DNA of 64,000 nucleotides from Kofleriaceae bacterium (GCA_965215005.1 CBDCCZ010000010.1:32001-96000); one strand, 5' to 3'; shown: positions 53,274 through 63,325, numbered from the stretch's first letter. Numbers and translations are program-made. Notes: generated from the sequence alone by a model not told the origin.

Positions 53274-54688
53274 AACTGCTGTTAGCGGCGGTGCTGCTGG
53301 TGGGCAGCGCGTCGTCTGCCCGCGCCCAGCGGCTCATCCTCGAGAGCTACGTCGCCGCACCGCCGGCGTCGTCGCACACGGTGATGCCGCCGCTGCGTGC
53401 ATCGCTCAACCAGCGCGGCGCGCTCGCGACCACGCAAGAGGTAACAGCGCAGCTCGAGAGCTCTTCGCGGGTCAATTTGCCGCCGCCAGCATCGGTCGTC
53501 GAACAAATCGAGACCAACCTCAGCGCCGGATTTCGGCATTGGGGCAATGTCGAGTTCGATCGCGCGATCGAGTCGCTGCGCGAAGCCATCGCGCTGGCGC
53601 AACAGTACCCGCTCGTGACCACCCGCTCCGCCGATTTGCGCCGCGACATCTTTCACGCCCACGTCGCTCTCGCGTTGGCCTACCAGCGCAGCGCCCGCCA
53701 GAGCGAAGCGCGCGCCGAGCTCGAAGACATCGTTCGCACCTATCCCGAACAGCGGATGCCCTTCGACCGGTTTGGCCCACAACCGGAAGCGCTGCGCCGA
53801 CAGGTCGAAGCGGATTTACGCGCCGAAGCCGAAGGCCGCCTCGTGGTGTCCTCGCCCAGCGGCGAGCCCATCCGCGTGTTCGTCAACGAGCAATTCATCG
53901 GCAACGGCGCCAGCGTCGAAGCCTCGCTCTTGCCCGGCCGCTATCGAGTCTTCACCACGAGCGACGCCCACGTCAGCCGCATCCGCGAGATTCGCATCGA
54001 CAGCGGCCGCGACCACCGACTGACCATCGACCCCCGGCTCGATTCGATCCTGCGGCTCGAGCCACGGCCCATGATGGTTTTCGCCGACGAAGTCGAGCGA
54101 AGCAAGCGACAGCGCGGCTACGTGCGCGAGTTGGTGCATCAAGCATCCGCAGCCAGTGGCATGATCTTGCTGCACGTCGAGTCCGCCGGTGACATGACGC
54201 GAGTCATTGGCGAGGTGCTAACGGCGGAAGGCCAGCGCGAGCGCGCGGGCGCCGTCCGCGTCGATGCAGAGTTGCCGCAGGTCGAATCGCTCGAAGCCCT
54301 GGCCGAGTTCCTGGCAAATGGCGTGGCATCGCCCGCGATTGAGGTACTGAGCGGCTCGGCGCTGTCGGCCCGCCCTTCGCACACCTCGCGCTTTGGCGCC
54401 TGGAAGTGGGTCGGGGTCGGGATCGGAGTCGCCGCAGCGGCAACCGGTGCCACGCTCCTCTACCTCGACGGCCGCGGCACTTGCGATGTCCCCGGACAGA
54501 TGCGATGTCCCCGCGAGTACGGCACCAAGACAGCCGGCGTCGCGACCTTATCTGTGGCGGGCGTCGCCGCCGTAGCCGCCACCTTGATGTGGATCTTCGA
54601 CGATGCGCCGGTGCGCGAGCGGACCCAGATTGGCCTCGGCCGCACCACCAGCGGCTCCTGGACCGTCGGCTTGAGCGGCCAGTTCTAG
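53255..54688 (+). CDS. Secreted TPR/PEGA-like protein
   Basis: GGAGG upstream of GTG 53255; signal peptide; helical repeats; PEGA-like VFVNEQFIG..LLPGRY; ends VGLSGQF. Confidence 0.75.
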   Translation: MARALLKLLLAAVLLVGSASSARAQRLILESYVAAPPASSHTVMPPLRASLNQRGALATTQEVTAQLESSSRVNLPPPASVVEQIETNLSAGFRHWGNVEFDRAIESLREAIALAQQYPLVTTRSADLRRDIFHAHVALALAYQRSARQSEARAELEDIVRTYPEQRMPFDRFGPQPEALRRQVEADLRAEAEGRLVVSSPSGEPIRVFVNEQFIGNGASVEASLLPGRYRVFTTSDAHVSRIREIRIDSGRDHRLTIDPRLDSILRLEPRPMMVFADEVERSKRQRGYVRELVHQASAASGMILLHVESAGDMTRVIGEVLTAEGQRERAGAVRVDAELPQVESLEALAEFLANGVASPAIEVLSGSALSARPSHTSRFGAWKWVGVGIGVAAAATGATLLYLDGRGTCDVPGQMRCPREYGTKTAGVATLSVAGVAAVAATLMWIFDDAPVRERTQIGLGRTTSGSWTVGLSGQF

Positions 54689-54852
54689 CCCAGTGAGCTC
54701 GAGCGCCGCTCCCTACCTCATTTCCTACGGTACCGCGGCCCCCTGAGCCGCCCCGCCTAGCGCGGAGACGGTATGCAGCGCCTGGACGACCCGCGCTGAT
54801 CGCTTTGCAGACGCGCGCAGCGATGGCGACTGATGGCGACGGGAGACCGCGT

Positions 54853-56010
54853 TCATGGCGCGGTGTCAGCGACCTGAATCTGCAGCTGATTGCCCAGCTC
54901 GCGGAAGGCGATGACCCCTGGCGCGTCGTAGCGCGGAACCAGGGCAATGGCGGTGCAGTCGGAGATGCCCCACGCCGGATGCGTGTCCTCCAGGCCCCGC
55001 ACGCGCTTGCCGGTGGCCAGGTCATAGACGAAGTACTGGCAGCGCTCCGGGCGCATCGACATGTCAGTGTCCTTTGCGGGCACGTGCTCGAACAGCCATA
55101 CCAGCCCGTCCGTCACGCCCAGCCACGAAAACTCGGGGGATACAAGCGATGGAATAGGTACAACCCTCAGCGGTTTGCCGGCACGACTCTCGTATACGGA
55201 GATCTTACTGCAGGTCTCACAGCGATCAGGATCCTGAAGAAGCAGCGCGAACCGCTCCCCGTCAACGCTATAGACAATGCGACCATGCCCGCCACTGGCT
55301 CCATCTAATCCAGGATCTAGGTCGTGCTGCCAAATGACGCTACCGTCGTCGGTGTTCCGTGCTTGAACAGTTTCCTTGCGTGAAGTGTCCCTCAGCAAAA
55401 CAAGGAATTGCTTTGCGTTGGGAGCGACCACCGCTGCCGCCACACCCGTCCCCTTACCCAAAGAAACGACCCAAACAGGATCTCGTTGTTCTGGCTTGTA
55501 CCAGTGTAGAGCCCCCCATGTCCGCGCCGGTCCTGACACCGTCCGCAGTAGCCCTGCTTCCAGCTTTCCCGGCGCGACGCGCCATAGCGTATTTTCCGAC
55601 CAGGAATAGTCGCCGCGATCCGTGGATTCTTTGGCGTCTGAGCCAATTAGCTCGGGGGCCAGATAGTACAAGGAGCCATCGAGGGAATCTGCGCGGACCG
55701 TATTAGCCTCCACTGTGTGAAACCTGAGCAAGGCATCCGCGACCAAATAGCCTTCCGCCACTTCAGGGACACCCATTTTGTCAATGTGGAAGATGTGGCC
55801 CGGGACGCCCCCGCCGGGGAGCTGCACTGCGACCGCACCCTTGGGTCCCGTAGCGACCATTCGCTGTGGATCACCGATGGTTGCTGGCACACCGACACGA
55901 TGAAGCAGAGTAGGCACGGGCGGTAACACTTCGTTTTGAGGTTGACGAGAGGATCCGCAACAGCAGGAGAGAATCAACACCAAGGCGGCAGCACTGGCGT
56001 AGTGCATCAT
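54853..56010 (-). CDS. Putative immunity lipoprotein, copy 3 (385 aa, beta-propeller-like)
   Basis: MMHYASAAALVLILSCCC lipobox; paralog of the two upstream copies. Confidence 0.85.
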   Translation of the reverse strand: MMHYASAAALVLILSCCCGSSRQPQNEVLPPVPTLLHRVGVPATIGDPQRMVATGPKGAVAVQLPGGGVPGHIFHIDKMGVPEVAEGYLVADALLRFHTVEANTVRADSLDGSLYYLAPELIGSDAKESTDRGDYSWSENTLWRVAPGKLEAGLLRTVSGPARTWGALHWYKPEQRDPVWVVSLGKGTGVAAAVVAPNAKQFLVLLRDTSRKETVQARNTDDGSVIWQHDLDPGLDGASGGHGRIVYSVDGERFALLLQDPDRCETCSKISVYESRAGKPLRVVPIPSLVSPEFSWLGVTDGLVWLFEHVPAKDTDMSMRPERCQYFVYDLATGKRVRGLEDTHPAWGISDCTAIALVPRYDAPGVIAFRELGNQLQIQVADTAP

Positions 56011-56186
56011 CCGTCGATGATCTTTCTCAGCCGGTCGAGCTGCGAGCTCGAGAGGCAGTTCCACATATCGTCGTCGGCGACCCACCAGCCGTGCTTAAAG
56101 TCGCCCTCCCATGCGTGGCCCTCATTGTGGACGGGCGGATGCCTGCGCAGGTCCGAGGCAACTCTCTCAGCGAGTCTGCCGTTCAT
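56007..56186 (-). CDS. 59-aa orphan toxin C-terminal tip ORF, copy 2
   Basis: MNGRLAERVASDLRRHPPVHN plus the last 38 aa of the toxin; its stop overlaps the lipoprotein ATG. Confidence 0.5.
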   Translation of the reverse strand: MNGRLAERVASDLRRHPPVHNEGHAWEGDFKHGWWVADDDMWNCLSSSQLDRLRKIIDG

Positions 56187-56234
56187 GGAAGAGGCCTTTG
56201 CGGTTTGGCAGATATGGCCATGGAACTCACGAGA

Positions 56235-57398
56235 TCATGGCGCAGTGTCTGCGACCTGAATCTGCAGCTGGTTGCCCAGCTCGCGGAAGGCGATGACTCC
56301 TGGCGCGTCATAGCGCGGAACCAGGGCAATGGCGGTGCAGTCGGAGATGCCCCACGCCGGATGCGTGTCCTCCAGGCCCCGCACGCGCTTGCCACTAGCC
56401 AAATCGTAGACGTAGTACTCGCAAAGCTCCGGGATGTTCGACATATCCGTGCGCTTCTCCGGCACGTGAACGAACAGCCATACTAACCCGCCCGTCACGC
56501 CCAGCCACGCAAACCTCGTTTCCACGCTTGGCCCAAGGGGCACGCGGTGTAGCAGCTTACCTGTTCCGCTCTCGTGCACGACAATCTGCACGCAACTTAC
56601 GCAATGCTCAGGATCCGGGAGAAGCAGCGCAAATCGCGCTCCATCGGAGCTATATACGAGCCGAGAGTCTCGAATACTGATTCCGTCGCTCTCCTTGCCC
56701 AACGCGCGGGCCCAACTAACGCTACCGTCCTTAGTGTTGCGAGCTTGCAGCGTTTGTTCGCGTGAACCGTTCCTGATTAGAACAAGGAACTGCTCTGCGT
56801 TTGGTGCAACCGCTGCCGCCGCCACACCAATCCCGTTACCCAGCGAAACGTGCCAGAGCGGACTCCGCTGTCCTGGCTTATACCAGTGGAGAGCTCCCCA
56901 CCTCAGCGCTGGTCCCGATACCGTCCGAAGCAGCCCTGCTTCCAGCTTTCCCGGCGCGACGCGCCACAGCGTGCTGCGCTCGGACCAGTCGCAACAGCGT
57001 AATCCGCTCGATTCGATAGCGTCGGCCGAGCTCACTCGCTCTGGTGCAAGATAGTAAACGGAATTATCGAGAGAGTCCGCTCGGACCGTATTATCTTCCA
57101 CGTCGTGGAACCGGAGTAGGGCATCCGCCATCAAATAGCCTTCCGCGACCTTCGCGACACCCGCTGTGTTGATGTGGAAGATGTGGCCGGGGATGCCACC
57201 GCCAGGGAGCTGCACGGCGACCGCACCCTCGGGTCCCGTAGCGACCATTCTCTGTGGATCACCGATGGTTGCTGGCACACCGACACGATGAAGCAGAGTA
57301 GGCACGGGCGGTAACGCTTCCTTGTGAGGTTGACGAGAGGACCCGGAGCAGCAGGAGAGAATGGTCATCAGGGCGGCGGCACTGACGTAATGCATCAT
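56235..57398 (-). CDS. Putative immunity lipoprotein, copy 2 (387 aa)
   Basis: MMHYVSAAALMTILSCC lipobox; paralog. Confidence 0.85.
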   Translation of the reverse strand: MMHYVSAAALMTILSCCSGSSRQPHKEALPPVPTLLHRVGVPATIGDPQRMVATGPEGAVAVQLPGGGIPGHIFHINTAGVAKVAEGYLMADALLRFHDVEDNTVRADSLDNSVYYLAPERVSSADAIESSGLRCCDWSERSTLWRVAPGKLEAGLLRTVSGPALRWGALHWYKPGQRSPLWHVSLGNGIGVAAAAVAPNAEQFLVLIRNGSREQTLQARNTKDGSVSWARALGKESDGISIRDSRLVYSSDGARFALLLPDPEHCVSCVQIVVHESGTGKLLHRVPLGPSVETRFAWLGVTGGLVWLFVHVPEKRTDMSNIPELCEYYVYDLASGKRVRGLEDTHPAWGISDCTAIALVPRYDAPGVIAFRELGNQLQIQVADTAP

Positions 57399-57574
57399 CC
57401 GTCGATGATCTTTCTCAGCCGGTCGAGCTGCGAGCTCGAGAGGCAGTTCCACATATCGTCATCGGCGACCCACCAGCCATGCTTAAAGTCGCCCTCCCAT
57501 GCGTGGCCCTCATTGTGGACGGGCGGATGCCTGCGCAGGTCCGAGGCAACTCTCTCAGCGAGTCTGCCGTTCAT
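57395..57574 (-). CDS. 59-aa orphan toxin C-terminal tip ORF, copy 1
   Basis: Open frame from ATG 57574 to TGA 57395, ending EGHAWEGDFKHGWWVADDDMWNCLSSSQLDRLRKIIDG. Confidence 0.5.
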   Translation of the reverse strand: MNGRLAERVASDLRRHPPVHNEGHAWEGDFKHGWWVADDDMWNCLSSSQLDRLRKIIDG

Positions 57575-57622
57575 GGAAGAGGCCTTTGCGGTTTGGCAGA
57601 TATGGCCATGGAACTCACGAGA

Positions 57623-58786
57623 TCATGGCGCAGTGTCTGCGACCTGAATCTGCAGCTGGTTGCCCAGCTCGCGGAAGGCGATGACTCCTGGCGCGTCATA
57701 GCGCGGAACCAGGGCAATGGCGGTGCAGTCGGAGATGCCCCACGCCGGATGCGTGTCCTCCAAGCCCCGCACGCGCTTGCCGCTGGCCAGGTCATAGACG
57801 AAGTACTGGCAGCGCTCCGGGATGTTCGACATATCCGTGCGCTTCTCCGGCACGTGCTCGAACAGCCAAACTAGATCGTCCGTCAGGCCCAGCCACGAAA
57901 ACTCGGCAATCACCCGTGGTTCGATGGGCACACGGTGTAACAGCTTCCCAGTTTGACTCTCATGCACCGCAACTTGTATGCAGCTTGCACAGCGCTTGGG
58001 CTCCGGAAGGAACAGCGCGAATCGCGCACCATCGGAGCTGTATACGAGGCGAGAGTCTGGAATGACGATTTCCTTCTTCTCCACCTCAAAGGCGTGGGCC
58101 CAGATGACGCTACCGTCGTTGGTGTTCCGGGCTTGGACCGTTCGCCGGCGTGATGTTTCCCGGAGCAGAACCAGGAACTGCTCCGCGCTGGGGGCGACCA
58201 CGGCCGCCCCCACACCCGTCCCCTTACCCAAAGAGACGACCCAAACAGGATCTCGTTGTTCTGGCTTATACCAGTGTAGAGCCCCCCACGTCCGCGCCGG
58301 TCCCGACACCGTTCGCAGCAGCCCTGCATCCAGTTTTCCCGGCGCGACACGCCATAGCGTGCTCCGCTCGGACCACGCACAACAGCGCGAGCTGCTCGAT
58401 CCGATGGCGTCGGCCGAGCTCACTCGCTCCGGGGCCAGATAATTCACGGAACCATCGAGGGAGTCAGCGCGGACCGTATTATCTTCCACGTCGTGGAACC
58501 GGAGCAAGCCGTCCGCGACCAAGTAACCCTCCGCGACTTTCGCGACACCCGCTGAGTTGATGTGAAAGATGTGGCCTGGCACGCCACCGCCAGGGAGCTG
58601 CACGGCGACCGCACCCTCGGGCCCCGTAGCGACCATTCGCTGCGGATCACCGATGGTTGCTGGCGCACTGACACGATGAAGCAGAGTAGGCACGGGGGGT
58701 AACGCTTTCTTGTGAGGTTGACGAGGAGACCCACAACAGCAGAAGAGAATCGACATCACGGTGGCAGCAGTGGCGTATTGCATCAT
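57623..58786 (-). CDS. Putative cognate immunity lipoprotein, copy 1 (387 aa)
   Basis: ATGA/TGATG overlap with the toxin stop; MMQYATAATVMSILFCCC signal peptide. Confidence 0.85.
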   Translation of the reverse strand: MMQYATAATVMSILFCCCGSPRQPHKKALPPVPTLLHRVSAPATIGDPQRMVATGPEGAVAVQLPGGGVPGHIFHINSAGVAKVAEGYLVADGLLRFHDVEDNTVRADSLDGSVNYLAPERVSSADAIGSSSSRCCAWSERSTLWRVAPGKLDAGLLRTVSGPARTWGALHWYKPEQRDPVWVVSLGKGTGVGAAVVAPSAEQFLVLLRETSRRRTVQARNTNDGSVIWAHAFEVEKKEIVIPDSRLVYSSDGARFALFLPEPKRCASCIQVAVHESQTGKLLHRVPIEPRVIAEFSWLGLTDDLVWLFEHVPEKRTDMSNIPERCQYFVYDLASGKRVRGLEDTHPAWGISDCTAIALVPRYDAPGVIAFRELGNQLQIQVADTAP

Positions 58787-61350
58787 CCGTCGATGATCTT
58801 TCTCAGCCGGTCGAGCTGCGAGCTCGAGAGGCAGTTCCACATATCGTCATCGGCGACCCACCAGCCGTGCTTGAAGTCGCCCTCCCATGCGTGGCCCTCG
58901 ACAAGCTCATAGAGACTCTTGCGTTGACCGGCGGTGGTGGTTTGGAAGAGACGAACGACCGTCTCGCCCTCGTCTTCGCCGCACCAGTTCCAGAATCCTC
59001 CCGCTAACGCGTGCACTCGAGCTGCCTTCTGCGGCAGAGTCATTCCGGCGAGCTGCTCTTCGGTCATCTCACCCTGGCCATTTTGGCCGTTGATCTCGCG
59101 CATGACGGCATCGTCTTGATTGAAGCCCGCTTGCCCGGTGGCAGGGCTGAAGTGGAGAATCGACAGGAGGCCTCCCAGCGGGTCGACGAGCAGCGGAGCG
59201 AGAAAGCCATCCAGGAACGCGCGCTTGGGATGCACTGTGAACCCCATCGCGACGTCTTGGGTCTCAGGAAACTTCGTCGCCATCCTGCGAAGCTCTTTGC
59301 CGAGCTCGCCGCCGTTCATGCTTAGGTCGATCTTCTTGCCGAATGTTTCACCGTCATCGGCTGCCGAATGAACTCGGGCGTCCCACAGAGTCTGCAAGTC
59401 AGGCTGCTGCCAGTTCTGGGTTCCGTTCTCAAACGCGCGGGCAGGATCGAGACGGGGCAGGACCTGTTCTGCGCCGTACTTGTTGGCTTGATGCGAGGCC
59501 GGCGGCATCGGCAGCGATCGCACCGCCTTGAGAACCTGCGCCGCGGTCATCGGATGGCCTCCTTTGGAGGCGCCCAGTTGCGCTGCAACACGAATGTCTT
59601 CCACCCCCAGCGCCACAGCCAGCTCCGCCATCTCAGCGGTGCGATTGTCGCTATCCTTATTATTGAGATGGCCATCGCCAAATAGCTTCCACGAGATGCC
59701 AAGGTCGTTGATGACCCAGACGCCGTTCTCGTTGTCGAAGTCATGGGCAACGAGCGACACCAAGTCGTCAAAGCCCATCGCCGGTAGGTCTTGCGTCTGC
59801 TCGAGAACGGTCTGCTGGATCGTCGCGTAGATCGTATCGACCGTTGCCGCCCAGCCCACCCAGTCGTTGTCGTTGATCCAACGCGCGACGTCGAGGGCGA
59901 TCTTGTTGCGCAGGTTGTCCCAAAATAGTGGGTAGATGGCGCGCCAATGCTCTCGAATGCTGGCTCGCGGGGTTCGCAGGTGACCGGCGGCGAAGTGATC
60001 GGTGAGAAAGTGCTGGGCCGCCGCCTCGCGCGCGCTCGCCTGCTCGACCTCGCCGCTGTCGTAGGCCATCAAGATCGCGGTCTCGTGCAGCGCGCGGTAC
60101 GAGCCGCCCGCCGACGCCCGATCGCCTGCAGTCGGGCCTTTATCGCCACCTTGAGGGGCGACGAAGTGCTCAGCGTTGGCGGCAGCACGGCGCAGATACC
60201 GCTCTTTCACCGAGGCGATGACAGAGTCGGAAAAGGTGATCTGGTTCCATGGATGGCCCTGGGGATACGCCGGCGTGCACCCGAGCATGAAGCGATCATC
60301 ATCTGGGATGGCCTGCTTGATGGCACATACGATTTCATCCCAGGTCCCCACGTTTTGGCCGGGTGATAGCGACGGGATCTGCGCAAGAAGGAACAGCGAG
60401 TCTGGATCGGGCTCTTCCATGCCAGCGGCGTTCAAGCGCGTGTCGCGGGGCGAAAAATAGTCGCCGGTGAGCATGACGATGTCGCCATGGGTCAGCCGAA
60501 AGGCGCGGTTGTATGCACTGCTGTCGATGGCGGGGCTATGGCCGCCAAGGTCATAAGAAGCCGCGCCCGTGGCATTGTCGCCGAGGCTCTTGTGCTCCAA
60601 CGAGCCAAAGCGCTGCACCCGGCCAAGGCCCGCTTGGCCACCGCGACCGCTCCCAGCCGCAAGCAAGTCGGAGGCTGGCTGTTGTGCAACTACGCGCGCC
60701 GCTACCGCGTCGGCGTTTCGCTCATATGAGTCGCCGTGCTGGCCAACGCCGCCTTTGAGCTGCACGCCGTTCCGCTGCTGCAGCACGTGCGCCACCTCGT
60801 GCGCCGTGGTCGCAAGAGTGGGCGCGCCCCTAAAGACCACGTGCTCGCCAGTCGCAAACGCCTCGGCACCCATGCGCTCCGCCGAGCGGCTGGCATCGGC
60901 GCCGACGTGGGCGGCAATGGTGGAGAGATCATGGCCGGCAAGCGAGGCCTGCAGCTCCGCGCGATACGGCAACGTCTGGCTCGGCGTCTGAGCGCCCTGC
61001 GCCGCGGCCTGCTGCACCGCCGCCGAGTCGAGCTCGCCGGCTGCTCGCTCCGTCGACTGCTGGACTGCCGTCTGCTCGAGGTTTGCGCCGCCGCTCTGCT
61101 CGAGCTCCGGCCTCCGCTCGGGCGATTCCGACGAAACATCGTCCTGCGTCGAGCTCGCTGGCGCTGCCTCGGCTCCTAACTGCGCCCAAAACCTCTTGAG
61201 TGACGCGCTGACGAGTTGCTCCTGCGCCTCATTCTGCTGCACCGGCATAAAACTGGTGCGAGTGCCCTTGCATGGCCATCCTCCGCTCGCGCCGCCGTAG
61301 GCGCTCTCTTCGCGATATCGCCCTGTCGAATCTGGTCGTTTCTCCCGCAT
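58783..61350 (-). CDS. DUF4157 (eCIS core domain) protein with predicted zinc phospholipase C/P1-nuclease-fold toxin domain
   Basis: GGAGG RBS before ATG 61350. DUF4157: AEAFATGEHVVF...AHEVAHVLQQ...ERNADAVA. After VQR: FGSLEH..LGD, GDIVMLTGDYF, NAEHF, HFLTDHFAAGHLRTPR, HDFDN and FGDGHL. Confidence 0.88.
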   Translation of the reverse strand: MREKRPDSTGRYREESAYGGASGGWPCKGTRTSFMPVQQNEAQEQLVSASLKRFWAQLGAEAAPASSTQDDVSSESPERRPELEQSGGANLEQTAVQQSTERAAGELDSAAVQQAAAQGAQTPSQTLPYRAELQASLAGHDLSTIAAHVGADASRSAERMGAEAFATGEHVVFRGAPTLATTAHEVAHVLQQRNGVQLKGGVGQHGDSYERNADAVAARVVAQQPASDLLAAGSGRGGQAGLGRVQRFGSLEHKSLGDNATGAASYDLGGHSPAIDSSAYNRAFRLTHGDIVMLTGDYFSPRDTRLNAAGMEEPDPDSLFLLAQIPSLSPGQNVGTWDEIVCAIKQAIPDDDRFMLGCTPAYPQGHPWNQITFSDSVIASVKERYLRRAAANAEHFVAPQGGDKGPTAGDRASAGGSYRALHETAILMAYDSGEVEQASAREAAAQHFLTDHFAAGHLRTPRASIREHWRAIYPLFWDNLRNKIALDVARWINDNDWVGWAATVDTIYATIQQTVLEQTQDLPAMGFDDLVSLVAHDFDNENGVWVINDLGISWKLFGDGHLNNKDSDNRTAEMAELAVALGVEDIRVAAQLGASKGGHPMTAAQVLKAVRSLPMPPASHQANKYGAEQVLPRLDPARAFENGTQNWQQPDLQTLWDARVHSAADDGETFGKKIDLSMNGGELGKELRRMATKFPETQDVAMGFTVHPKRAFLDGFLAPLLVDPLGGLLSILHFSPATGQAGFNQDDAVMREINGQNGQGEMTEEQLAGMTLPQKAARVHALAGGFWNWCGEDEGETVVRLFQTTTAGQRKSLYELVEGHAWEGDFKHGWWVADDDMWNCLSSSQLDRLRKIIDG

Positions 61351-61426
61351 CCTGCCTCCAACGCCTCCCCTGGAGGCTTTCCTCAGCCGTCGGCCTCAAA
61401 ACGCATCGCTGCCGCAGACATCCTAC

Positions 61427-61442
61427 GCAAACCGGCGTCCAA
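61427..61442 (-). promoter_or_regulatory. Candidate sigma-54 -24/-12 promoter of the toxin operon
   Basis: TTGGACGCCGGTTTGC (GG-N10-GC) about 77 nt upstream of the toxin ATG. Confidence 0.35.
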
Positions 61443-61717
61443 TGTTCCCCCGCTCGAGAAACTTTGACGACAGCGGCAAGCGTCCACTTGCGCCGCCCGC
61501 TCGCCTCGACTGGCCATTCTGGTCGCCGTCTTCGGTCCTGGTGGCGGGAAATCGGCGAGAGCCCCGCAAGCTCCGGGCCAGCTGGCCACAGCTAGAACGC
61601 CGTCACGGTTTGCCGGTGGAACAGGCTAGAAGTGGGCGACTGACGGCAGCTCGAGCATTTACACTCGCCCACGACCGAGCCGACTCGAAGTTAGCCGCGT
61701 TACAAATGAGGAGATAC

Positions 61718-63325
61718 ATGCCCCGTAGAGCTGCGAACGTTCTCATCACGATAGCGACCATCGGTTCTTGCGCGTTGCTTTCTTGTGTTTGGCCGCCGCG
61801 TCAAGACACCCCGTTGTACTGCGATGCGTCGACGCCGTGTAGCTACGAAGGGTTTCCCGACGCGACGTTCTGCGATGTCGATGGGAATTTGCAAGGCGTG
61901 GGCAATACGTGCATCGAGCCGCTATCGCTGCCGTGCTCGACCGCGGCGGAGTGCGTGGCGCGGCGGGAGCCGGTTTGCGGGCTACCAGAGGGAGTCTGTC
62001 GCGGCTGCGCCAGCGGGGAGGCGGGCGATGGGGAGTGTGCGGAGAAGAACGCAGGCACGCCGTTCTGCGCCGCGGGCGCTTGCGTGACGTGTCGAGAGTC
62101 GAATGACTGCGATGCGAGCGCGCCGATCTGCGCCGACAATGAATGTGGCGCGTGCGAGGTGGGCGCCGAGGGCGACGCAGCGTGCGCGGCGCGCGATGCC
62201 AGCGCCCCCACGTGCGTCGACGGTCGCTGCGCCGAGTGCCAAGTGGATGGCGATTGCGTGGGTGCTGCCGGCCCGATTTGCGATCTCGAAACGCTGCAAT
62301 GCCGCGGCTGTGAGACCCATGGAGAGTGCGCCTCCGGCGTCTGCGACCGCGACGGCGGCAGCTGCATCGACGAGGCCAACCTCATCTACGTGGCCGCCGA
62401 CGGCGGAGTCAACAGCCCCGCATGCGGTAGGAAAGAGCAGCCGTGCGGCTCCATCGGCGGCGCCCAAGGCGGCTTGGCAAAGGTCGTCGGCCGCCGCCAC
62501 ACGCTGCAGCTCGCCGCAGGCAACTACGTAGAAGCCGTGAGCATCGCCAGCGGCGAGCTCGTCCGTTTCGTCGGGGCGGGCGTGATCACGCCGCCATTGC
62601 GCGCCGACGAACCGGCGCTCTCGGTCAGCGCCGGCAGCACCGTCATCATCGACGGCCCCAAACTCGCCGACGCCACCGGCGGCAACAACGCCGACGGCAT
62701 CCGCTGCGAGGGCTCCTCCACCCTCACCCTCCGCGAAGCCACCATCTCCGGCAACGCCGCCACCGGCATCGAAGCCAGCAACTGCACCGTCCAAATCGAA
62801 CGCTCCACCATCTCCGGCAACCTCGGCGGCGGCGTTGACATCAAGAACTCCGCCTTCACCATCCAAAACAACTTCATCGTCAGCAATGGCACCGCCGGAG
62901 CCAACGGCTCGTCCTTTGGCGGCGTCTCCATCAACAACAACGGCGCCGTCGACACCTCGATATTCGACTTCAACACCGTCGCCGATAGCCTCGCGAGCCC
63001 CAATGCCCCTGCCGCCGCCGTGCTTTGCCTCGGCACTCCCTTCGTCGGCTCCAACAACATCGTCTACCTCTCCACCGGCGGCCTCGCCTCGACCGCTGGC
63101 ACCTGCACCTGGACCTACTCAGACATCCAAGGCGGCGCCCCCGGAACCGGCAACCTCGACCTCGACCCCGGCTTCATCGACCCCGCTGGCAACTTTCACC
63201 TCGGCACCGCCTCCCCACTCATCGACGCCGCCGACCCCGCCGCCACCCTCCCCCTCGACTTCGACGGCGACTCGCGCCCCCAAGGCACCGCCTCCGATAT
63301 CGGCGCCGACGAGGTCATCCCATAA
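61718..63325 (+). CDS. Cys-rich repeat plus right-handed beta-helix surface lipoprotein (paralog of 46249-48060)
   Basis: GAGGAG RBS before ATG 61718; lipobox LLSC; Cys repeats; ISGN beta-helix repeats; C-terminal FHL...SPLIDAA...DIGADE. Confidence 0.88.
   Translation: MPRRAANVLITIATIGSCALLSCVWPPRQDTPLYCDASTPCSYEGFPDATFCDVDGNLQGVGNTCIEPLSLPCSTAAECVARREPVCGLPEGVCRGCASGEAGDGECAEKNAGTPFCAAGACVTCRESNDCDASAPICADNECGACEVGAEGDAACAARDASAPTCVDGRCAECQVDGDCVGAAGPICDLETLQCRGCETHGECASGVCDRDGGSCIDEANLIYVAADGGVNSPACGRKEQPCGSIGGAQGGLAKVVGRRHTLQLAAGNYVEAVSIASGELVRFVGAGVITPPLRADEPALSVSAGSTVIIDGPKLADATGGNNADGIRCEGSSTLTLREATISGNAATGIEASNCTVQIERSTISGNLGGGVDIKNSAFTIQNNFIVSNGTAGANGSSFGGVSINNNGAVDTSIFDFNTVADSLASPNAPAAAVLCLGTPFVGSNNIVYLSTGGLASTAGTCTWTYSDIQGGAPGTGNLDLDPGFIDPAGNFHLGTASPLIDAADPAATLPLDFDGDSRPQGTASDIGADEVIP

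Follow-up and report, generated by a model that had tools for sequence, protein, structure and literature searches.

The locus described here, from a soil-type Kofleriaceae bacterium (Myxococcota), is best read, with moderate confidence, as encoding a phospholipase C (PLC)-like envelope toxin marked for extracellular contractile injection systems (eCIS), followed by a periplasmic immunity array; we infer toxicity, substrate, and protection from sequence, predicted structure, and gene linkage. The 855-aa product would be a polymorphic toxin of Myxococcota whose DUF4157 domain marks it as eCIS cargo, and an eCIS encoded on another contig would deliver it. About 25 residues past DUF4157 would follow a ~390-residue metal-dependent phosphodiesterase of PLC/S1-P1 nuclease fold, probably belonging to a wider sequence family of ~43- to 48-kDa Pseudomonas "phospholipases", which would attack a target cell's envelope phospholipids from the periplasm. 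The three downstream genes (p1, p2, and p3) are predicted to encode exported, lipid-anchored, seven-bladed beta-propellers that would bind and block the enzyme. Because p1 is translationally coupled to the toxin gene, it would be the cognate partner, and p2 and p3 may be variants, retained or imported, that guard against toxin variants made by kin. The original prediction, a membrane-attacking DUF4157-PLC toxin with a poly-immunity array, is partly supported, in that those parts open to in-silico testing held up.

Organization of the locus

All elements of the locus lie on the minus strand of the window, which is the whole 64,000-nt stretch of DNA analyzed (Table 1). The predicted gene arrangement was recovered as described: an ORF for a DUF4157 protein with an HExxH motif, a stop codon that overlaps the start of the first lipoprotein gene (ATGA), and a lipoprotein gene present three times at a period of 1388 bp, with products of 385 to 387 aa that are 76% to 81% identical to each other. 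This threefold repetition is not due to chance. Three direct-repeat families (D1 to D3) have three copies each, spaced at 1388 + 1388 or 1382 + 1388 nt, the shorter spacing being due to a 6-nt deletion in p3. The same 855-aa protein with PF13699 is present in the database (P0001). Its gene is located at ~90.8 to 93.4 kb of a 220-kb contig (C10), at least 90 kb from both ends.

Table 1 Features of the toxin-lipoprotein locus, in window coordinates. Coordinates and lengths of p1, p2, and p3 are counted from the conserved MM start.
Feature	Position	Strand	Basis or remark
Predicted toxin gene, 855 aa	58783..61350	(-)	ORF; order: N-terminal leader, DUF4157, short Gly-rich linker, PLC-like module, helical C-terminal region
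DUF4157/eCIS_core domain, residues 129-195	60766..60966	(-)	Pfam PF13699, E 2.9e-12
HExxH motif HEVAH, residues 184-188	60787-60801	(-)	Motif position in toxin
Phe248, preceded by V-Q-R; first ordered module residue, proposed mature N-terminus	60607..60609	(-)	Alignment, model
PLC/S1-P1-nuclease-like metallophosphoesterase module, ~residues 248-640, with HFLTDHFAAGH (H447, D451, H457)	59431..60609	(-)	
Helical C-terminal region, residues 641-855	58786..59430	(-)	
Annexin-repeat-like stretch, last ~87 toxin residues	58786-59046	(-)	
Lipoprotein paralog p1, 387 aa	57623..58786	(-)	ORF; start overlaps toxin stop (ATGA)
Spacer after p1, 111 nt	57512..57622	(-)	Same sequence as spacer after p2; unlike sequence after p3
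Toxin-tail copy 1, 117 nt (38 codons + stop)	57395..57511	(-)	ATGA junction with p2 kept
Lipoprotein paralog p2, 387 aa	56235..57398	(-)	ORF, genome profile search
Spacer after p2, 111 nt	56124..56234	(-)	
Toxin-tail copy 2, 117 nt	56007..56123	(-)	ATGA junction with p3 kept
Lipoprotein paralog p3, 385 aa, last of the array	54853..56010	(-)	ORF; sequence past stop unrelated to spacers

The enzyme module and its relatives

The motif set first noticed in the toxin is conserved in an alignment of 40 diverse sequences of the toxin family. Twelve columns (D290, D297, N392, H395, H422, H447, D451, H457, H536, D537, D559, and E628) are invariant in all 40, and H253 and E252 are kept in 39 and 38 of them, respectively. 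The module is significantly similar to a 434-aa "phospholipase" (P0206) from a 19-member cluster of fluorescent pseudomonads (database E value 8.1e-11; pairwise, 30% identity across 243 aa, E = 2e-16). The Pseudomonas proteins keep most of the invariant columns, and they share H253, D258, D297, N392, H395, H422, H447, D451, H457, H536, D537, D559, and E628 with the toxin family. The name "phospholipase" on these relatives is an NCBI annotation, not the result of an assay, and no NCBIfam model stands behind it.

An AlphaFold2 (AF2) model of the module (pLDDT 92.8, pTM 0.90) is ordered from its ninth residue, F248, onward, residues 1 to 8 having a pLDDT below 50. The best structural matches of this model are zinc PLCs and S1/P1 nucleases, with most of each target domain covered and middling scores; Foldseek returned no match at E ≤ 0.001. 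In the structural alignments, F248 falls at the position of residue 1 of these enzymes, and together with the invariant His/Asp side chains it may form a trinuclear metal site. The module had no match in the PDB by sequence or by profile, and no Pfam family matched residues 240 to 635 or 636 to 855 at E ≤ 10, including zinc PLC (PF00882) and S1/P1 nuclease (PF02265). PF00882 has no match anywhere in the genome, and comparing the module, profile to profile, with PF00882 members of related genomes gave no significant result (probability 0.16). 

The module may instead be a phosphodiesterase with a non-lipid substrate, either an S1/P1-type nuclease or an enzyme that cleaves a phosphodiester in a cell-wall polymer or precursor; in either case the lipoproteins would still be immunity proteins. 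We consider this quite unlikely, since the sole named sequence relatives are called phospholipases, PF02265 has no match in 61 genomes of the order (this genome included), and a cytoplasmic nucleic-acid target is improbable for an enzyme with an exported, lipid-anchored partner. The annexin-like C-terminal end, which suggests membrane binding, likewise speaks against it. Two peptidoglycan-binding domains in one homolog from the Ilumatobacteraceae hint at the cell envelope. Actinobacterial short forms of the module have no conserved partner and are found in conserved, housekeeping-like synteny, and therefore the module is not always a toxin.

Lipoprotein paralogs and the history of the array

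Searched with a profile, the whole 6.2-Mb assembly yielded p1, p2, and p3 and no further copies. The family is rare (67 out of 1.84 billion representatives); a lipobox-like signal is present in 25 of 40 members, and four Cys columns are conserved in 33 to 34 of the 40, as expected of an exported protein. The model of p1 is a seven-bladed beta-propeller (pLDDT 87.8). The cores of the paralogs have dS values of 0.65 to 1.13 and dN/dS values of 0.25 to 0.30, and they contain no stops. Judging from these rates, p1, p2, and p3 are evidently all functional, with purifying selection on their cores, and the differences between cores are mainly old synonymous divergence and not rapid local diversification. 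The word "diversified" in the original prediction is to be read with this limit.

Linkage of the two families in other genomes, an outcome on which the original prediction depended, was found from both directions. In seven of 80 related loci, a member of the lipoprotein family comes immediately after a toxin homolog on the same strand, and in the reverse search the toxin module adjoins five of nine lipoprotein loci outside this genome; the remaining four have no toxin homolog within 5 to 6 kb. Further DUF4157-fused homologs have small lipoproteins of other kinds behind them, including a PQQ_2/BamB-type propeller. No tandem lipoprotein array was found in the other 80 toxin-module loci. Since the other DUF4157 genes of this genome have no member of the lipoprotein family beside them (there are just three copies genome-wide), the link is with the enzyme module and not with DUF4157.

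The spacers before p2 and p3 each carry a copy of the toxin gene's final 117 nt (114 identical bases among the 116 compared), and a toxin-profile search of the genome independently recovers both tail copies (E = 1.3e-15 each). The repeat unit thus consists of a toxin tail, a lipoprotein gene, and the 111-nt spacer. Identity along this unit is ~100% at its ends and 42% to 90% in the gene cores. The two tail copies with identical junctions suggest that the array arose from one illegitimate join, followed by unit duplication. The join would have brought the toxin 3' end to the flank of an immunity gene, recombination may have maintained the near-identity of the unit ends, and the cores would be old, distinct alleles retained by selection. 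Because the array has one family and identical junctions, unit duplication with allele exchange fits better than serial insertion of unrelated modules.

We rate just as low the possibility that the propellers are accessory factors (an activator, an export or loading helper, an anchor, or a receptor) and that the array is simple gene amplification. Seven-bladed propellers are generic interaction scaffolds, no known immunity protein is among the top 50 structural matches of the propeller, four of the nine family loci elsewhere lack a toxin neighbor, and most antibacterial eCIS toxins are reported to have no recognizable immunity genes (PMC8213781, PMC11297309, in the text available). However, the toxin has no signal peptide and its partner is exported, so the two would meet only in the toxin-receiving cell. 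Three diverged copies under purifying selection, together with toxin-tail remnants, form the pattern of an immunity array as far as it is described in the accessible part of PMC5361080. Distinct small lipoprotein families behind distinct toxin homologs are typical of immunity genes, and the toxin-less family members fit orphan immunity genes.

The DUF4157 domain and the injection systems of the genome

PF13699 matches the toxin with 47 bits (gathering cut-off 22), with the zinc-binding motif intact, and is one of nine matches to this family in the genome. The status of DUF4157 as an eCIS toxin marker, on which the original prediction drew, agrees with the sections available of two studies: it is described as an eCIS-specific core domain, frequently N-terminal to toxin domains (PMC8213781), and is present in 36% of known eCIS toxins versus 0.06% of other proteins (PMC11297309). 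The genome has an eCIS locus on contig C40, with Pvc16_N, two sheaths, two gp19 tubes, two Phage_base_V, and gp25. The toxin gene is remote from this operon, outside the ten-gene neighborhood that, in the same partial text, holds 88% of known eCIS toxins (PMC11297309). No T6SS sheath (VipB/TssC) was matched in the genome (assembly 92.8% complete), and ORFs and Pfam searches at the locus revealed no VgrG, Hcp, or PAAR genes beside the toxin. The least probable of the alternatives is that the locus is not an interbacterial weapon and encodes a lipid-degrading enzyme released by a predatory or saprophytic myxobacterium, with the lipoproteins shielding the producer's envelope during release; secretion of the P. 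fluorescens PlcC group without a signal peptide (PMC2613904, as far as its accessible text goes), the resemblance of the actinobacterial short forms to ordinary chromosomal enzymes, and the distance from the eCIS locus are consistent with it, but fusion to DUF4157 is reportedly highly specific to eCIS cargo (PMC8213781, PMC11297309, same sections), and a single self-protection role leaves three diverged protective alleles unexplained.

A possible role of DUF4157 in maturation

A further and rather doubtful suggestion is that the protein is a zymogen with DUF4157 as its built-in maturase. The metal site of the PLC/S1-P1 fold includes the free aromatic residue at the N-terminus. In these enzymes, the N-terminal residue binds metal via its main chain (PMC5201275). 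The proenzyme of Listeria PC-PLC stays inactive until its propeptide is cut off by a separate metalloprotease, and any residue ahead of W1 abolishes activity, with W1F being tolerated (PMC10576769). In all six PLC/S1-P1 structural alignments of the modeled module, F248 is the first aligned residue and is paired with residue 1, or the first mature residue, of the matched chain. The F248 column has phenylalanine in all 29 sequences with a residue there, the other 11 of the 40 starting at or after it. Of these 29, 19 have Q-R before the phenylalanine and 24 have Q at position -2. This pattern occurs independently of the leader, whether this is DUF4157, a degenerate Nostoc leader, or a short LQRxAGNxAV leader. 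Leaderless actinobacterial forms begin at the F248 position, with Met1 five residues ahead of the first His. Cleavage at QR|F, whether the work of the HExxH domain lying 60 residues upstream or an event in the target cell, would turn the enzyme on only after delivery. If so, DUF4157 would gain a function, and the lipoproteins would have a task only when activated toxin arrives from outside. Such a scheme would also account for the tolerance of producers to cytoplasmic eCIS toxins in the absence of cytoplasmic immunity, a puzzle left open in the eCIS papers as far as their available sections go (PMC8213781, PMC11297309).

Comparison with known systems

The toxin resembles the eCIS toxins (EATs) described in the accessible parts of Geller et al. 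2021 (PMC8213781) and Danov et al. 2024 (PMC11297309) in having an N-terminal DUF4157 HExxH domain followed by a C-terminal effector, no Sec signal, and a producer genome with an eCIS and several DUF4157 genes. It differs in that its C-terminal module is absent from the activities listed in those parts, and in having a conserved exported partner and an array where most antibacterial EATs are without recognizable immunity genes. Its gene also lies well away from the eCIS operon.

The zinc metallophospholipase C family was reportedly defined in a 2013 JBC paper, together with its essential conserved residues. The module is likened by description to the PlcC/Legionella PlcA-B-C group, as portrayed in portions of PMC2613904 and PMC6617341, while similarity was measured to the annotated 434-aa Pseudomonas "phospholipase". 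In the first of these portions, the P. fluorescens PlcC group spans 383 to 546 aa and includes Legionella PlcA, the characterized PlcC has 385 aa, and the Pf0-1 protein has 437 aa; PlcC is reported to lack a signal peptide, as does the toxin. The Pseudomonas "phospholipases" share with the toxin the motifs RF..EH..GD, GD[YF], N..HF, H[FY]LTD.F.AGHLR.PR, HD.D, and [FY]GD. The module here departs from the PlcC group in its fusion behind DUF4157, its lipoprotein partner genes, an insertion of ~70 residues that follows the HFLTD helix, and a C-terminal extension of ~215 residues.

The best structural matches of the modeled module are B. cereus PC-PLC, the clostridial alpha-toxin N-domain, Listeria PC-PLC, and S1/P1 nucleases. 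It resembles the zinc PLC/S1-P1 fold in its aromatic first residue, its many invariant His/Asp residues, and the H-x3-D-x5-H motif, which is typical of that fold.

Tle and Tli are phospholipase effector-immunity pairs of the T6SS. The parallel drawn to them in the original prediction holds as an analogy but not as a shared apparatus, since the genome has no recognizable T6SS sheath and a complete eCIS on another contig; moreover, the enzyme is not an alpha/beta-hydrolase lipase. As in T6SS effector-immunity loci, the partner proteins are exported, which suits an enzyme acting on the envelope. The locus has the arrangement of an orphan immunity array, several immunity-type genes after one effector with effector 3' ends retained (three paralogs and two tails), as in the V. 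cholerae T6SS arrays with their shifted effector 3' ends (PMC5361080, as far as its available text describes them). In contrast to those arrays, the one described here is built from a single family with identical junctions.

Organization of the locus

The anatomy of the toxin-lipoprotein locus is real and richer than the original prediction described. The 855-aa DUF4157 gene and three tandem lipoprotein genes that it had placed at 54853-61350 were confirmed by open reading frames, Pfam, and a repeat finder, which returned three families of three copies each at a spacing of 1388 nt (1382 nt where p3 has a 6-nt deletion). The stop codon of the putative toxin gene overlaps the start of the first lipoprotein gene in the sequence ATGA. 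The three lipoprotein paralogs (p1, p2, and p3) share 76% to 81% identity, and a search of the whole 6.2-Mb assembly found exactly three copies of the family, all in this array. Scans of positions 54300-61800 gave no excess of promoters (1 match versus 1.3 in the shuffled expectation) or terminators (6 matches versus 4.5). On balance, we favor reading the locus as a DUF4157-marked, phospholipase C (PLC)-like toxin of the envelope, accompanied by a beta-propeller immunity array in the periplasm, which would have grown by unit duplication and allele exchange.

The divergent neighbor of the toxin gene encodes a protein of 627 aa, possibly secreted or at the surface, whose N-terminal half is rich in Cys and which contains a right-handed beta-helix. 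Further away, a Ser/Thr protein kinase carries a repeat linker rich in Pro and Ser as well as a PEGA domain at its C terminus, and the gene for a 350-aa PEGA-domain membrane protein overlaps its stop.

Coordinates of features in the window and of related loci elsewhere (L, locus; G, genome; C, contig; G000 is the genome of the window)
Feature	Position	Strand	Basis or remark
Toxin ORF, 855 aa	58783-61350	minus	ORF scan
DUF4157/eCIS_core (PF13699)	toxin residues 129-195		Pfam E 2.9e-12, 47 bits, cut-off 22
HExxH motif (HEVAH)	from toxin residue 184		
p1, 387 aa	57623-58786	minus	counted from conserved Met-Met start
p2, 387 aa	56235-57398	minus	counted from conserved Met-Met start
p3, 385 aa	54853-56010	minus	counted from conserved Met-Met start
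Beta-helix protein, 627 aa	61442-63325	plus	PF13229, E 5.6e-10
Ser/Thr protein kinase, 636 aa	50317-53273	plus	
Second DUF4157 gene, 1405 aa	L081:3682-7899 (G000:C10, ~97.7-101.9 kb)	minus	Annexin repeat PF00191, E 7.6e-10
eCIS locus	L082 (G000:C40:1-20000)		
Open frame, 1064 residues	L135:6553-9744 (G009:C2)	minus	
Cyanobacterial ORFs, ~427 aa	L005:3794-5080; L007:9030-10313; L008:9146-10429		no Pfam match
Module homolog, Ilumatobacteraceae MAG	L034:1945-4701		PF01471, E 9.4e-32

Fold and family of the enzyme module

Relatives of toxin residues 240-855 comprise 76 proteins at E<=0.001 in a 90%-clustered collection, its own protein counted, and 182 were confirmed in one-per-species reference genomes; the locus analysis covers the best 80 of these 182. 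In Haliangiales, Kofleriaceae, and other Myxococcota the module is fused behind DUF4157, in Nostoc it follows a leader that Pfam does not recognize, and in Actinomycetota it is leaderless, with a length of ~480-500 aa. Pfam detected PF13699 in 12 of the 21 toxin ORFs submitted to it. Homologs include P0002-P0009, with ~70% identity, and P0010 of Haliangium ochraceum, with 65%. The Actinomycetota forms (loci L025-L080; database proteins P0057, P0062, and P0069) lack the final ~110 residues, and the short forms show conserved synteny with a ~556-593-aa gene and other ordinary-looking genes; the leaderless forms are probably not toxins but ordinary enzymes, either cellular or secreted. The homolog in an Ilumatobacteraceae MAG carries two C-terminal peptidoglycan-binding domains.

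Structural modeling suggests, with middling scores, the PLC/P1 fold named in the original prediction; searches of family and structure databases led to no named family. Pfam assigned the module to no family at E<=0.01 or at E<=10, NCBIfam gave no match, the PDB gave none with phmmer or a profile hmmsearch, and Foldseek of the model against the PDB returned 0 matches at E<=0.001; matches in the ESM Atlas were to unnamed clusters only (0.93 and 0.92). An AlphaFold2 model built on a 40-sequence alignment has a pLDDT of 92.8 and a pTM of 0.90, with disorder confined to residues 1-8. When this model was aligned exhaustively with 48,161 representative chains, a single fold, that of PLC and S1-P1 nucleases, supplied 6 of the top 16 rows, and each of the six alignments covers model residues 9 to ~350-370 and most of the target chain. 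All 40 sequences keep D290, D297, N392, H395, H422, H447, D451, H457, H536, D537, D559, and E628, and 39 keep H253. These invariant His, Asp, Asn, and Glu columns strengthen the fold match, as does the motif HFLTDHFAAGH (H-x3-D-x5-H), which we take to be typical of the PLC/P1 metal site.

Structural matches of the module model to the PLC/S1-P1 fold, with the values returned for each
C. absonum alpha-toxin	7.4	166
SmNuc1 nuclease	6.6	157/245
Listeria PC-PLC	6.3	155/230
B. cereus PLC	6.1	153/245
S1 nuclease	5.7	151
Zinc-dependent bifunctional nuclease	5.6	152

A profile-profile comparison with 10 PF00882 members of related genomes was not significant (probability 0.16) and is a weak test, since those members are membrane-embedded, unlike classical secreted PLCs; its sole local alignment set QHFLTD against SHxxxD. 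Given this result, and since neither PF00882 nor PF02265 has a match in this genome, the module was placed in neither family. The locus supplies a probable fold and a likely chemistry for one unnamed DUF4157-linked module, whose relatives number at least 182 across reference genomes.

Relation to named phospholipases

The original prediction had likened the module to Legionella PlcA/B and a Pseudomonas fluorescens PC-PLC; the Legionella zinc metallophospholipase C family was reportedly defined in a 2013 JBC paper. A search limited to shorter proteins gave 63 relatives. One cluster of these comes from fluorescent pseudomonads such as P. brassicacearum and P. mucoides; its proteins are 434 aa long, with a database E of 8.1e-11 (pairwise E 2e-16, 30% identity over 243 residues). 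The NCBI/UniRef name is "phospholipase" in 6 of 15 listed members, and of the 19 members read 10 have a name at all; NCBIfam offers no model for these proteins that supports the name. In an 11-sequence alignment they keep H253, D258, D297, N392, H395, H422, H447, D451, H457, H536, D537, D559, and E628, and every motif of the set first noticed in the toxin is retained in them.

The published account of P. fluorescens PlcC describes a PLC of 385 aa that degrades lecithin, is linked to haemolysis, and lacks a signal peptide; its relatives in other pseudomonads measure 383-546 aa, the 437-aa one of Pf0-1 among them, and it is 43% identical to Legionella PlcA, its similarity to B. cereus PC-PLC not being significant (PMC2613904). 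Judged by size, taxon, and name, the 434-aa Pseudomonas matches likely belong to the PlcC group. The assignment to the PlcA/B-PC-PLC family is thus plausible and partly supported by the Pseudomonas similarity and motifs and by the description of the PlcC group. The module would connect the poorly understood PlcC/PlcA-type phospholipases with the PLC/S1-P1 fold.

N-terminal boundary of the module

All six PLC/S1-P1 alignments start at model residue 9, which is Phe248 of the toxin, opposite residue 1 of the mature enzymes; in S1 nuclease the corresponding residue is Trp21, the first mature residue. In this fold the main chain of the N-terminal residue binds a metal (PMC5201275). In Listeria PC-PLC, W1 is critical and W1F is tolerated, a single extra N-terminal residue abolishes activity, and the propeptide is removed by a metalloprotease (PMC10576769). 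Phe occupies the F248 column in all 29 family sequences that reach it, preceded by Q-R in 19 and with Q at -2 in 24 whatever the leader type, and ten short actinobacterial forms in the alignment begin at the F248 position (M-x-x-x-E-H, with His as residue 6). The alignment of F248 with the first mature position, the Listeria PC-PLC precedent, and the conserved QR/F junction suggest that the toxin might be a zymogen needing N-terminal processing at F248, a possibility that we consider doubtful. The conserved junction opens a simple test of the role of DUF4157.

The lipoprotein family and its linkage to the module

No Pfam or NCBIfam model matched p1, p2, or p3, and a word-based search found one outside relative only (43% identity); a profile run against 1.84 billion representatives found 67 relatives, 10 of them at E<=1e-30. 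Among 40 family sequences, a lipobox-like signal is present within residues 1-45 in 25, the column of p1 Cys17 holds Cys in 27, and four more Cys columns are each kept in 33-34, a pattern that fits predicted exported, disulfide-bonded lipoproteins. The lipobox of p1 (ILFCCC) is atypical; p2 and p3 have ILSC. An exported partner points to the envelope as the site of action, consistent with a periplasm-acting T6SS metallopeptidase whose immunity protein must be exported and is an outer-membrane lipoprotein in some species (PMC6899460). When the 616-aa toxin module was co-folded, without controls, with residues 21-387 of p1, the scores were 0.00 and 0.01 (mark, 0.32), a result that is neutral on binding.

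Within the best 80 of the 182 toxin-module loci, a lipoprotein-family gene lies directly downstream on the same strand in seven (L001, L002, L011, L014, L017, L021, and L024), all Myxococcota-type. Small exported proteins of other kinds lie behind further DUF4157-fused homologs: in L010 a propeller lipoprotein of the PQQ_2/BamB type (349 aa), and in L019, L020, and L027 a family of ~160-200 aa. In the same 80 loci, the actinobacterial short forms have no conserved partner, and no other locus has a tandem lipoprotein array. In cyanobacterial loci (Nostoc and a Chroococcales MAG), the conserved ~427-aa ORF 200-320 nt downstream of the module gene is a candidate partner of another family.

The reverse search, with the lipoprotein profile against 301 genomes of the class, gave strong matches (91-299 bits) in 8 genomes besides this one, all of the same family; seven are near the full profile and that of G011 spans positions 228-385 only. 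The many weaker matches reflect single-blade similarity to larger propeller proteins, and a metagenome scan added one short locus. The toxin module adjoins the lipoprotein gene at five of these nine loci (8 genomes and 1 metagenome locus), which bears out the expectation that the homologs would be linked to it, although at one of the five, G009, the toxin frame is disrupted; at the other four it is absent within 5-6 kb, and the adjoining genes are unrelated (for example, alanyl-tRNA synthetase and Tex). Forward and reverse counts are not independent, because they draw on the same species set (contig G022:C1 is, by coordinates, that of L001). Since the lipoprotein family is absent beside the other eight PF13699 matches of this genome, it is tied to the enzyme module and not to DUF4157.

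The 1064-residue open frame of G009 was considered as a toxin-propeller fusion and rejected, as its toxin frame is disrupted: the match of this DUF4157 toxin homolog ends at profile position 497 of 680, and from there the frame stays open for ~100 residues that make little sense before reaching an intact lipoprotein ORF, which has a signal peptide and lipobox of its own. Here the toxin has decayed and the partner has been retained. The ORFs of 994 and 595 aa upstream at two orphan lipoprotein loci are unrelated to one another and were rejected as distant toxins (hhalign probabilities 0.64 and 0.27). In the representative library, P0084 (343 aa) joins DUF4157 straight to a lipoprotein-family propeller from about profile position 78, without the entire enzyme module or a lipoprotein signal peptide; its structure suggests either a toxin-immunity pair reduced by deletion or a chimeric assembly.

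Delivery context

As originally stated, the window contains no injection-apparatus genes. An extracellular contractile injection system (eCIS) locus on contig C40 encodes Pvc16_N/DUF4255, two sheaths, two gp19 tubes, two Phage_base_V spikes, gp25, and a 1359-aa ORF without a Pfam match; a T6SS sheath (VipB) was not found in this 92.8%-complete assembly. PF13699 has nine matches in the genome, over seven contigs. About 4 kb past the window end, the 1405-aa product of a second DUF4157 gene has this domain mid-protein (residues 570-633), followed by the Annexin repeat; on the same strand, two small ORFs of 229 and 235 aa that match nothing in Pfam follow the gene and possibly form another toxin-immunity module with it.

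The published eCIS surveys describe DUF4157 as a core domain that is specific to eCIS, occurs with toxins, and has no known role (PMC8213781), report no other annotated domain in 983 of 1130 predicted eCIS toxins with DUF4157 (PMC11297309), and leave unexplained that most antibacterial eCIS toxins lack adjacent immunity genes (PMC8213781, PMC11297309). DUF4157 toxins that have a conserved, exported partner are rare, and this locus, as one of them, makes envelope action of some eCIS cargo and kin protection directly testable questions. Toxin-immunity arrays and DUF4157 toxins are both already known kinds. The module, the partner family, and their combination outside T6SS are undescribed in the literature searched, where no paper contained both "DUF4157" and "phospholipase C"; the toxin clusters listed in the supplements of the eCIS papers might already include this module.

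History of the putative immunity array

Upstream of both p2 and p3, the final 117 nt of the toxin gene (38 codons and the stop) recur, identical to the toxin 3' end at 114 of 116 compared bases and with the same sharp boundary in both; across the genome, the toxin-family profile found one full gene and these two tails (E 1.3e-15 each). The repeat unit therefore consists of the toxin tail, a 1164-nt lipoprotein gene that shares 4 nt with the tail, and a spacer of 111 nt, so that the native ATGA translation start region is kept in every copy. The spacers after p1 and p2 are identical to each other, and downstream of p3 the sequence is unrelated from the first base past the stop.

Identity along the unit is mosaic, at 95% to 100% in the tail, the final ~170 nt of the gene, and the spacer and 42% to 90% in the core, and the paralog closest to p1 is p3 in some stretches and p2 in others. 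Nei-Gojobori dN/dS is 0.25-0.30 in all three pairs, indicating purifying selection on all three genes; dS falls from 0.65-1.13 in codons 111-330, the core, to 0.15-0.27 in the final 57 codons. These values mark the cores as old alleles and the unit ends as recently homogenized or exchanged. The array had been called diversified, and the three copies are indeed diverged; fast local diversification into recent hypervariable copies is ruled out by the low dN/dS with high dS.

The identical junctions favor a single illegitimate join, which would have linked a point 117 nt before the toxin stop to a point 111 nt after an immunity gene and been followed by duplication of the unit. The unrelated flank after p3 fits p3 as the resident gene, with units added in front of it. 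Toxin-tail remnants with identical junctions are a record of immunity-array growth outside T6SS, Rhs, or CDI loci. The growth logic is the same as that proposed for the T6SS immunity arrays of V. cholerae, where effector 3' ends have been shifted back into the array (PMC5361080).
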